A stretch of 64,000 nt of DNA from Parcubacteria bacterium C7867-007. Its GTDB lineage: Bacteria > Patescibacteriota > Minisyncoccia > Phycocordibacterales > Phycocordibacteraceae. The notes under the pieces were generated by a model. The model was not told where the DNA came from. It did no database searches and was given only the letters and a program-made list of their open reading frames with translations. Position numbers and translations under genes: made by a program. Below are positions 15,781 to 18,669 of this stretch, in pieces (the stretch's first letter is position 1; the number at the start of each line of letters is the position of its first letter). The DNA lies in NCBI GenBank assembly GCA_001189195.1, contig LFCQ01000003.1:71059-135058 (forward strand), given 5' to 3'.

Positions 15781-18669
15781 ATGGCAAAGAACCGTTTCGA
15801 TCATACAGAAATAGAGAAGAAAGCTCAGGAGAAATGGGCTGCGCTTGATCTGCATCAAACGGATCTCACAGATACCGAGAAGGATCCATACTATCTAATG
15901 TTTGAGTTCCCGTTTCCTTCGGGAGACCTCCATATAGGGCACTGGTATGCCTTTGCCCTCACAGACATTTATGCACGGTTCCTTCGCATGGCAGGGAAGA
16001 ACGTGCTTTTCCCTGTTGGTTTTGACTCCTTTGGTCTTCCTGCCGAGAACGCCGCAATGAAGAACGGGCAACCAACGCCCGAGTGGACGTACGCCGCTAT
16101 TGAGAAGATGCGTGGCCAGATGCGTTCTATGGGAACATCGGTAGATTGGAGCAAAGAGGTTATCACCTCAGACCCCGAATACTATAAGTGGACACAGTGG
16201 TTGTTCCTTAAACTCTTTGAGCATGGTCTTGCACAACACCGAGAAGCACCTGTTAAATGGTGTCCAAAAGATGCCACCGTACTTGCCAATGAACAGGTGA
16301 TTGATGGGAAGTGTGAGCGTTGCGGTACCGATGTTGAAGAGAAACACCTCACCCAGTGGTTCCTTAAGATCACTGATTATGCAGAGCGTCTCCTCACCGA
16401 TCTTGATCCACTTCCATGGCGTGAAGATATTAAAGAATCACAGCGTGCATGGATAGGGAAGTCAGAGGGAGCAAAGCTCAAGTTCCAGGTGGTGAGTGCA
16501 AAAGACGCATCAACACCCAATGATTCCGTAGCTATAGAAGTCTTCACAACACGTCCAGACACCATCTTCGGTGTTACGTATGTCGTACTCGCTCCTGAGC
16601 ACCCACTTATCGATACCCTTGAACCAGTTATTGCCAATGGTGAAGCGGTTGCTGAGTATCGTCAAACAACCTCGCGCAAGAGTGAGCGTGAACGCTCGGA
16701 GAACAAAGATAAGACTGGTGTACTCCTTGAAGGGGTTATGGCCATTAATCCTGCAACACACAAGGAGATTCCTGTATATGTAGCGGATTACGTACTTGCT
16801 TCATACGGTACCGGTGCCGTTATGGCAGTACCTGCGCATGACGAGCGTGATTTTGTATTTGCAAAGAAGTTCAACCTTCCAATCAAATACGTTATTGATC
16901 CAGTCACGGGATCTCCACAGGAGAATCCCCAAGATAAGCAGAAGATTGTAGCTATCGTTGAGCACGACAACAAAATCCTCACCATTCACTGGAAACCTGA
17001 ACTAGGGGGTCGTTTATTTGTTGGTGGTACCGCAGAAGAAGGTGAAGATCCTGTAGTAACTGCAATGCGTGAAATTGCTGAAGAAACCGGTTATACCGAT
17101 CTTGAGCTTATTGAACGTGCTGAGGAGCAAGTACATCACGAGTACTTTGCACACTCCAAGAACAAGGCATTTATCGCGCACACCACACTCCTTCATTTCC
17201 GCTTAAAGAGTGATGCACAGCAACCAACAGCTCTTGAAGATAATGAGATTGGAAAGTTTGAAGTTGAGTGGGTGACACGTGAGCAAGCCATAAAGGAAGT
17301 GAAGGATCCACTCCATCTCTACGCATTTAATAAGTTCGCTATGGGTATGTGCTACACCGGGGACGGTACCCTTTCAAACTCGGGAACCTTCAACGGACGC
17401 GATAACCGCGAAGTGATGGGAGAAATTGTTGAAGCAGTGGGTGGTGAGGTGACGACTAACTATCGTATACGAGATTGGCTTGTATCACGTCAGCGATACT
17501 GGGGCTGTCCAATACCGATCGTCTATGACCCTGAAGGGAATCCGCATGCGGTTCCCGCAGAACATCTCCCTTGGACCCTTCCAACCGATGTTGATTCCGG
17601 TTCAGGAAAGGGAGAGTCTCCACTTAAAGCATCAAAAGAACTTCAAGCACGTGTAGAGCAGATCTTCGGAGAAGGATGGACCCCAGAATGCGACACACTC
17701 GATGTGTTCGTAGATTCTTCATGGTACTTCCTGCGATACCTTGATCCCAAGGATGAGCATGACTTCTCAGACCAGGCACTTATGAAGAAGTGGTTGCCGG
17801 TGAATCGATACTCTGGTGGTAGCGAGCACACCACCGTGCACCTTCTCTATGCCCGTTTCTTCTACAAAGCGCTCTATGACCTCGGACTCGTTCCAACCTC
17901 TGAGCCATTCTATGAGCGATACAACCGTGGACTCGTACTAGACTCCGAAGGACGCAAGATGAGCAAGCGATGGGGCAACGTGGTGAACCCCGATGACATG
18001 GTGAAGCTCTATGGAGCAGATGCGGTGCGTATGTACCTCGCATTCATGGGTCCATACAACGAAGCAGGTCATTACCCATGGAAACTCACGGGTGTGGAAG
18101 CTATGCGAAAGTTCCTAGATCGTATCGTAACCCTATCGGGTCGCCTTTCTGATGAAGAGCCGACTGAGAATACCCTTCGTGCTCTCGCAAAGGCGGCAGA
18201 CAAGGTGGGCACAGACATTGTTCGCTTTAAGTACAACACAGCGATCTCTGCTCTTATGGTGCTTGTTAATGAACTTGAAACACTCACTGCTATACCTCGT
18301 ACTGCATACAGGGAGCTCATTACGATGCTCGCACCCTTCGCACCCCATGTATCAGAGTATTTGTATGAGAACAGCCTCCTCACGAGCTCTCACGCGGTAA
18401 ATGGTGATGAAGAGAGTGAAGTACCGAAGAGCGTACACCAGCTGGAGTGGCCAGTCATAGATGAATCCCTCCTCACCACTGAAACGATCATAATGGGAGT
18501 ACAGGTAGCGGGAAAACGACGGGGAGAAGTCTCTATTAGTCCCGAAGCAACCGAAGAAGAGGCTGTTGCAGCGGCACTTGCACAGCCAGATGTCCTCAAG
18601 TTCCTAGAAGGGGGTACACCAAGCAGGATTATCTACGTTCCAGGCCGTATCCTTAACCTAATACCCTAG
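15781..18669 (+). CDS. leuS: Leucyl-tRNA synthetase carrying an inserted Nudix-hydrolase domain.
   Basis: HIGH motif ([12 protein letters not shown]), CP1 editing domain ([10 protein letters not shown]...AHDERDF) and KMSKS (KMSKRWGN). About 135 extra aa at roughly nt 16895-17345 contain a perfect Nudix box [24 protein letters not shown]. Confidence 0.9.
   Translation: [962 protein letters not shown]

Follow-up and report, generated by a model that had tools for sequence, protein, structure and literature searches.

A Nudix domain nested in the CP1 editing domain of a bacterial leucyl-tRNA synthetase

Added catalytic domains are common in eukaryotic aminoacyl-tRNA synthetases and rare in bacterial ones. 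A recognised exception architecture is captured by the NCBIfam model NF040702 ('ileS_w_GNAT'), in which an isoleucyl-tRNA synthetase (IleRS) is joined to an N-acetyltransferase. The leucyl-tRNA synthetase (LeuRS) described here is likewise a class Ia synthetase with an additional, predicted catalytic domain, but both the synthetase and the added domain are different. It is encoded by leuS in a stretch of 64,000 nucleotides (nt) from Parcubacteria bacterium C7867-007 (assembly GCA_001189195.1, contig LFCQ01000003.1, forward-strand positions 71,059 to 135,058), referred to below as the window; coordinates are those of the window. The window enzyme has the HIGH, KMSK and CP1 editing motifs in common with the solved LeuRS of T. 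thermophilus (1H3N) and E. coli (4AQ7/4ARC). It differs from them in carrying a 139-residue putative enzyme domain of the Nudix type in a hairpin loop of CP1, where the T. thermophilus enzyme has 2 residues.

Among described Nudix proteins, E. coli RppH, Aquifex aq_158 (3I7U) and the lupin enzyme 1F3Y share with this insert a perfect Nudix box, the predicted fold (TM-scores of 0.70-0.79) and an aromatic residue in the 'X-loop'. The insert differs from these RppH and diadenosine-polyphosphate hydrolase types in scoring far under the curated cut-offs, in being acidic rather than basic, and in being tied to a tRNA synthetase. E. coli NudB (2O1C), a dATP and dihydroneopterin-triphosphate pyrophosphatase, is its best match among both NCBIfam and PDB profiles. 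A search of the literature on Nudix proteins in connection with LeuRS, other synthetases, the candidate phyla radiation (CPR) or editing domains found no paper describing a Nudix domain within LeuRS. In the text of a large review of the Nudix clan (PMC5389931) the words 'tRNA' and 'synthetase' never occur, and the NCBIfam matches of the window protein include no model for a LeuRS with a Nudix domain. Both parts are well known, and their combination is already present in public databases under automatic Pfam labels.

The Nudix module within CP1

In the window, a complete Nudix domain sits in a surface hairpin loop of the CP1 editing domain of an intact LeuRS. The 962-residue host protein scores 834.9 bits with the model TIGR00396 (leuS_bact), against a curated equivalog cut-off of 548.4 bits, and its closest relative in the PDB is T. 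thermophilus LeuRS (1h3n; E=2e-178, phmmer). Residues 9-384 align to residues 7-373 of the T. thermophilus enzyme and residues 524-721 to residues 376-579. The alignment breaks at 384/524 in the query and at 373/376 in T. thermophilus, and 139 residues therefore stand for 2. The Pfam profile NUDIX (PF00293) matches residues 391-505 (nt 16951-17295) with E=1.6e-13 and 51.2 bits, against a gathering score of 21.1, and in the PDB sequence search no solved LeuRS matched the insert region. An initial annotation of this DNA, made from the sequence alone, had recognised a Nudix domain in the leuS open reading frame (ORF) and estimated about 135 extra residues; the profile match confirms the first point and the alignment gives a value close to the second.

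The same annotation had put the insert after the end of CP1 and ahead of the catalytic core, and here it has to be corrected. In the native protein the CP1 profile PF13603 matches over profile positions 1-150 of 185 only, with 195.4 bits. Deletion of residues 384-523 in silico gives one contiguous match, over positions 1-183 of 185, with a higher score of 205.6 bits. Because the profile is broken at about position 150 of 185 and made contiguous by removal of the insert, the Nudix domain lies inside CP1, and the hairpin that follows it is still part of CP1. This hairpin ([16 protein letters not shown]...) opens the post-insert part of CP1, and its residues G529, L531, S534 and F537 are invariant in an alignment of 45 sequences.

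The Nudix box is perfect and occurs where the initial annotation had put it: the peptide [24 protein letters not shown] corresponds to residues 415-438 (nt 17023-17094), with the box proper beginning at its second G and a Tyr as the last hydrophobic position. When all 64 kb of the window are translated in six frames, a relaxed Nudix-box pattern turns up only once. As the initial annotation supposed, the motif belongs to a foldable Nudix domain. When residues 380-526 are modelled alone with AlphaFold (AF2), the predicted local distance difference test score (pLDDT) is 93.7, compared with 83.7 for the whole 962-residue protein, for which the predicted TM-score (pTM) is 0.73. A Foldseek search with the insert model returned 459 PDB matches at E<=0.001, and all 50 listed are Nudix proteins. 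The top match by E-value is the T. thermophilus ADP-ribose pyrophosphatase; by TM-score the nearest solved structures are the Aquifex diadenosine tetraphosphate (Ap4A) hydrolase 3i7u (0.72/0.79, root-mean-square deviation 2.9), E. coli RppH (0.70-0.73) and 2azw (0.72).

The module is strongly conserved among relatives of the window protein. All 120 of its best homologues (58-100% identity, 920-1176 residues, the identical deposited entry being P0003) carry PF00293. Among them the insert has diverged faster than the core domains, with a mean pairwise identity of 47% as compared with 69-77%. Within the box, G416, E431, E434, E435, G437 and Y438 are kept in all 120 orthologues, R430 in 117 and E422 in 116; outside it, K460 and W497 never vary and E489 is conserved in 119. 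When modules from all contexts are taken together, the three glutamates of REUXEE are kept in 191-197 of 197.

These comparisons also bear on whether a frameshift, a chimeric assembly or a mis-joined neighbouring Nudix gene could have produced an apparent fusion. Nothing was found in favour of this; the sole oddity is a slight dip in the GC content of the Nudix-coding stretch (window 16850-17300), which is 0.43-0.45 against about 0.49-0.51 in flanking leuS. Against it, the LeuRS sequence resumes in the same frame beyond the insert, the identical 962-residue protein is called on a 37-kb contig of the Joint Genome Institute (JGI) and on an independent Logan assembly, and in about 250 LeuRS of unrelated sample origin the module occupies this position. 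A scan of the junctions for promoter and terminator signals found none above shuffled expectation, and a search for flanking direct or inverted repeats found only short, chance-level repeats, none of them at the boundaries. On the comparative data an assembly artefact is thus excluded, its probability being negligible, and the view of the initial annotation that this is a genuine in-frame domain is supported. The junctions, with neither boundary repeats nor expression signals of the module's own, give no sign of a transposon-like or recently acquired cassette. Searches of defence and phage libraries gave generic Nudix similarity only, so that an anti-phage role or a phage origin of the module is unsupported.

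A Nudix subfamily in and beside leuS

The Nudix subfamily to which the module belongs is found almost exclusively in or adjoining LeuRS and is persistently tied to leuS, either covalently or by gene adjacency. A profile built from 23 diverse inserts was searched against 1.84 billion representative proteins (50%-identity clusters), and matched 460 clusters at E<=1e-10 and 148 at E<=1e-30, the 148 being mostly from Patescibacteria, with a large clade of gut Bacilli in addition. When the best 150 matches were classified by LeuRS flank profiles, 114 proved to be LeuRS or fragments of LeuRS. The commonest site is that of the window, after position ~373 of the N-terminal flank model, with 246 modules, 219 of which have a strict perfect box. 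Other locations are the N-terminal CP1 junction, a point within CP1 (position ~244) and the C-terminal half of LeuRS, and tandem modules are found at the window's site. Some LeuRS have two or three Nudix copies, P0124 showing three NUDIX stretches by Pfam. In such multi-copy enzymes some copies fail the strict box, and at least one perfect box is present in every protein checked except P0163. When the modules are placed in a neighbour-joining tree (~140 columns, without support values), copies from different sites of a single protein do not for the most part pair as sisters, and stand-alone and inserted forms intermingle; this grouping is tentative. Recent intragenic duplication as the source of the multi-site copies was accordingly rejected, also tentatively, in most cases.

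The distribution among lineages was followed in 80 loci from species-representative genomes. This sample is biased: two of the six peptides used for the search come from the insert, and the frequency of the insert among LeuRS is therefore not derivable from it. The module is present in the LeuRS of 26 of the 80 loci, whose labels include Patescibacteria, Paceibacterota, Moraniibacteriota, Berkelbacteria, Saccharibacteria and 'uncultured Bacilli'. Within this biased set it is absent from the LeuRS of Giovannoni-, Wolfe-, Harrison-, Yonath- and Jorgensenbacteria and from all Clostridia and Chloroflexi-type LeuRS. Uncultured gut Bacilli form a second large clade (L006-L011, L017, L018, L033; P0295-P0414), one member of which is Candidatus Onthocola stercoravium (Bacillota; Bacilli incertae sedis); a search seeded with one protein of this clade found PF00293 in all 120 best matches (74-100% identity). 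Hundreds of uncultured bacteria share the conserved arrangement.

Enzymes with and without the insert intermingle in a neighbour-joining tree of LeuRS cores, and the gut Bacilli core groups there with Clostridia-type enzymes. The latter placement gives a hint that the module, or the gene, has moved from one lineage to another. The insert-free LeuRS of locus L024 has a core 76% identical to that of P0115, which bears the insert, and the insert is present in each of the eight nearest neighbours of L024; the alignment of L024 has a clean in-frame deletion that leaves a linker of ~7 residues. L024 is thus a clear case of secondary loss.

The subfamily also includes genuine small genes, with a Met start and 154-199 residues. 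Four of the seven stand-alone genes examined have a synthetase neighbour: P0195 ends 3 nt before a leuS without the insert, P0155 ends 2 nt before a leuS with the insert in the same DUF5671-leuS synteny as in the window, P0168 lies between argS and ileS, and P0253 lies upstream of a gene similar to that of threonyl-tRNA synthetase. Chance is an unlikely source of this count: with assumed backgrounds of 4-10%, the binomial p for four of seven is ~1e-4 to 3e-3, though the cases are not fully independent. A fifth gene, P0173, starts 4 nt after Fpg/MutM, and P0151 and P0188 have no synthetase neighbour. A word-index search with the insert alone returned two short proteins, of 154 and 116 residues, whose similarity is confined to the module and its linkers, and gave no information on distribution. 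At their N-termini, P0151, P0155, P0188 and P0239 open with a short hydrophobic strand ('F-I/V-D/x') and continue into a linker ('NP..(E)GK'). Since the stand-alone N-termini resemble the pre-insert segment of LeuRS (IKYVIDP...ENP), the small genes may derive from excised LeuRS inserts.

A further form, P0272, is a free-standing remnant of CP1 with a Nudix domain at the same site (287 residues; L089 5001-5864 / L090 4704-5567). It scores 39.9 bits with PF13603 and 35.4 bits with NUDIX, is encoded immediately behind a gene for a CYTH-domain protein on contigs that reach 326 kb, and appears from a reading of its sequence to have lost the catalytic residues of editing. Some leuS genes are followed, at 0.3-1.4 kb and on the same strand, by separate and more distant Nudix ORFs. 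They follow an insert-less leuS in L041 (5161-5715), L049 (5162-5716) and L072 (5800-6327) and are also found in L022 (5864-6451) and L023 (6248-6742), this five-locus group including leuS both with and without the insert.

Other hydrolase domains are found in class Ia synthetases of these bacteria. Further patescibacterial LeuRS, of 1100-1200 residues, have a second domain nested in CP1 besides the Nudix domain (residues 258-442 in P0164; also L026, L030, P0175, P0215, P0221, P0240 and P0258). That of P0164 is an alpha/beta serine hydrolase (PF06821, E=4e-11); the presence of an esterase in a domain acting on aminoacyl esters is suggestive. An IleRS of 1184 residues (L085, 6094-9648), downstream of argS, has a nested histidine-phosphatase domain (His_Phos_1) and Nudix genes on both sides.

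The host enzyme and its gene neighbourhood

The synthetic and editing motifs of the window LeuRS are intact (Table 1), and the enzyme looks functional as far as its sequence goes. The leucine-specific domain, a feature of most LeuRS though not of all, is absent, query residues 721-726 spanning residues 579-637 of T. thermophilus LeuRS (phmmer against the PDB). In its place stands the tetrapeptide DSEG, for which the family consensus is GPDG. The minimal LeuRS of M. mobile also has a tetrapeptide here, the leucine-specific domain being replaced by a GKDG linker (PMC3643597), and the lack of this domain is therefore no bar to membership of the LeuRS family. The initial annotation had explained the length of 962 residues by the Nudix insertion; this accounts for the added 139 residues, but the length also reflects the missing leucine-specific domain of ~55 residues.

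The DUF5671 gene upstream of leuS has the same place in related genomes, in some of which a stand-alone Nudix gene comes between the two. A gene for a 2H phosphoesterase (CPDase/LigT-like) lies further upstream.

Table 1. Features of leuS and the genes upstream of it in the window. Residues are those of the 962-residue protein.
Feature	Residues	Positions	Strand	Basis or remark
2H phosphoesterase (CPDase/LigT-like) gene		14205-14741		overlaps DUF5671 gene by 40 nt
DUF5671 membrane-protein gene		14702..15742	+	Pfam label; DUF5671-(Nudix)-leuS order syntenic in related genomes
leuS, bacterial-type LeuRS	962 in total	15781..18669 (stop codon included)	+	single unbroken ORF
HIGH motif, synthetic site	51-54	15931..15942	+	H51, G53, H54 invariant (45-sequence alignment)
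CP1 editing domain, pre-insert part	222-382	16444..16926	+	Pfam PF13603, profile positions 1-150
Thr-rich editing motif TTRPDT	256-261	16546-16563	+	T256, T257, T261 invariant (45 sequences)
AHDERD editing motif	352-357	16834-16851	+	D354, D357 invariant (45 sequences)
Nested Nudix module, ~139 residues, with its own N-terminal linker/strand and C-terminal helices	385-523	16933..17349	+	gap against T. thermophilus LeuRS
Nudix box, [23 protein letters not shown]	416-438	17026..17094	+	read from sequence; fits GX5EX7REUXEEXGU
'X-loop' aromatic, 17 residues past the box	Tyr455	17143..17145	+	Y in 81/120, F in 39/120 orthologues
CP1 editing domain, post-insert part	524-552	17350..17436	+	PF13603 positions ~151-183
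DSEG tetrapeptide, then KMSK(R) loop	721-724, then 726-730	17941..17970 (DSEG 17941-17952)	+	K726, M727, S728, K729 invariant (45 sequences)

Substrate and role of the module

None of the curated Nudix family thresholds of NCBIfam is reached by the insert. The best single match is NudB (NF006961), over profile positions 12-145 of 151, with 36.5 bits against a cut-off of 103; RppH (PRK00714 models) gives 22 bits against 116 and MutT (NF008044 / TIGR00586) 16 bits against 148, all below threshold, and YtkD and NudE are matched weakly as well. Among the 23 diverse members, weak matches are to RppH in 22, NudB in 21, NudE in 16 and MutT in 2-6. A PDB profile search, also weak, ranks NudB first (1.7e-7), in an alignment that spans the N-terminal strands and the Nudix box only, and the lupin Ap4A hydrolase second (3.4e-7). 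A Tyr about 17 residues past the Nudix box coincides with diadenosine-polyphosphate hydrolase activity, according to the Nudix-clan review (Dunn et al. 1999, cited in PMC5389931). Over 197 modules the residue at this position is Tyr in 101, Phe in 84 and another residue in 12 (Tyr or Phe in 185/197). The modules are acidic, with a median pI of 5.5 over the 197 and a net charge of -11 in the window, and therefore better fit a small-molecule enzyme than an RNA binder.

The favoured reading is that the insert is an autonomous, active pyrophosphohydrolase coupled to LeuRS, which probably clears dinucleoside polyphosphates made by the synthetase; the probability of this reading is put at roughly 0.45. 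The most probable substrates would be of the Ap4A/Ap3A type. The distribution of the module suggests autonomy coupled to leuS: it is predicted to fold alone, and it appears to relocate, to duplicate, to be lost and to form a separate gene. Since stand-alone, remnant and relocated copies exist, it would work independently of the LeuRS active sites. On this model LeuRS would charge and proofread tRNA-Leu as usual, while the Nudix domain, by means of its REUXEE glutamates and Mg2+, would hydrolyse a nucleotide pyrophosphate compound arising near synthetases. Dinucleoside polyphosphates would be such compounds, formed by synthetases when an aminoacyl-adenylate reacts with ATP or another nucleotide. 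It may be speculated that covalent or operonic coupling keeps such a clean-up activity in step with synthetase expression in bacteria with small genomes. The aminoacyl-adenylate itself is unlikely to be the substrate and was rejected as such; by the usual chemistry of Nudix enzymes it fits poorly because it has no diphosphate linkage.

Several observations weigh against this reading. The substrate assignment draws on weak, sub-threshold similarities (36.5 of 103 bits for NudB, 22 of 116 for RppH), the Foldseek E-values, at ~1e-8, are modest, with ADP-ribose pyrophosphatases placed just as high, and 43% of modules have Phe in place of Tyr at +17. No finding connects Ap4A with LeuRS specifically, and LeuRS is not known to be among the strongest producers of Ap4A. 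The position of P0173, 4 nt after Fpg/MutM, and the label MutT that JGI gives to some members point instead to 8-oxo-guanine nucleotides. Three of the seven stand-alone genes have no aminoacyl-tRNA synthetase neighbour, and the insert is dispensable, having been lost in L024.

Some of these points would also fit a generic house-cleaning Nudix enzyme, similar to MutT or an NTP pyrophosphatase, which has no mechanistic tie to leucylation and, in streamlined genomes, hitch-hikes in an insertion-tolerant loop of a gene that is both essential and constitutively expressed. The label '8-oxo-dGTP pyrophosphatase MutT' on stand-alone members, the proximity of P0173 to Fpg/MutM, the NudB profile as the best single NCBIfam and PDB match, and the clean loss in L024 are all consistent with it. 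So is the occurrence of an unrelated alpha/beta hydrolase in the same CP1 region of other LeuRS and of a histidine phosphatase in IleRS, which suggests that these loops are simply tolerant of insertion. A hitch-hiking domain is nevertheless hard to reconcile with a subfamily that is nearly exclusive to LeuRS, in it or beside it (114 of the best 150 representatives), that reappears beside leuS when it is not inserted, and that has been retained independently in Patescibacteria and in gut Bacilli, all of which argues for a specific link; the MutT-type score, at 16 against 148 bits, is moreover negligible. This explanation is thus considered unlikely. A specific link of another kind would exist if the module were an RNA-end enzyme similar to RppH or NudC, acting on tRNA-Leu or another RNA held by LeuRS and stripping either a 5' triphosphate or nucleotide cap, or else an adduct such as a pyrophosphate at the acceptor end, which is the end that CP1 handles. 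The domain that houses the module binds the 3' end of tRNA, no curated family is matched by more members than RppH (22/23), and E. coli RppH structures are among those with the best TM-scores. P0272 fits such a role in retaining the CP1 scaffold and the Nudix domain, its editing residues apparently lost, as do the neighbouring genes for the 2H phosphoesterase/CPDase in the window and the CYTH protein beside P0272. The RppH score is, however, far under its cut-off (22 against 116 bits), and the acidity of the modules does not favour RNA as a substrate; stand-alone copies and those at distant sites suggest no fixed geometry relative to a bound tRNA, and stand-alone members also occur outside contexts related to tRNA-Leu. 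Action on RNA ends is therefore regarded as quite unlikely.

Catalysis itself would not be needed if the module were a ligand sensor or a surface for binding tRNA or protein, for example one that compensates for the absent leucine-specific domain. Non-enzymatic Nudix domains are treated as a recognised class in the Nudix-clan review (PMC5389931), the leucine-specific domain is indeed missing, and some copies in multi-copy LeuRS fail the strict box pattern. What makes a non-catalytic module improbable is the conservation of the box and its metal-binding glutamates, invariant in the 120 orthologues and nearly so in the 197 modules, which would be unexpected for a pure binding module. In addition, each multi-copy protein checked, with the exception of P0163, retains at least one perfect box, and stand-alone members exist.

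A broader proposal, tentative and more doubtful than the clearing of dinucleoside polyphosphates alone, is that the inserts form an undescribed, dedicated Nudix family which provides LeuRS with a third activity beside synthesis and editing, as part of a wider, so far unrecognised loading of class Ia synthetases with hydrolases. Its target might be dinucleoside polyphosphates, or it might serve in repair or decapping at the tRNA acceptor end. Within this same proposal, bacteria with small genomes, namely Patescibacteria and gut Bacilli, would between them have added one to three Nudix domains and a serine hydrolase in CP1 to LeuRS, and a histidine phosphatase to IleRS.

What is found in the window is a predicted, apparently active nucleotide hydrolase lodged inside the domain with which an essential enzyme proofreads, and the arrangement extends across much of the CPR and an abundant lineage of gut Bacilli. 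Natural controls, in the form of clean-loss, split-gene and multi-copy variants, make the question of its role tractable by experiment. If the substrates are alarmones of the Ap4A type, the module would tie aminoacylation directly and physically to the turnover of alarmones; if they are tRNA ends, it would represent a new kind of tRNA quality control.

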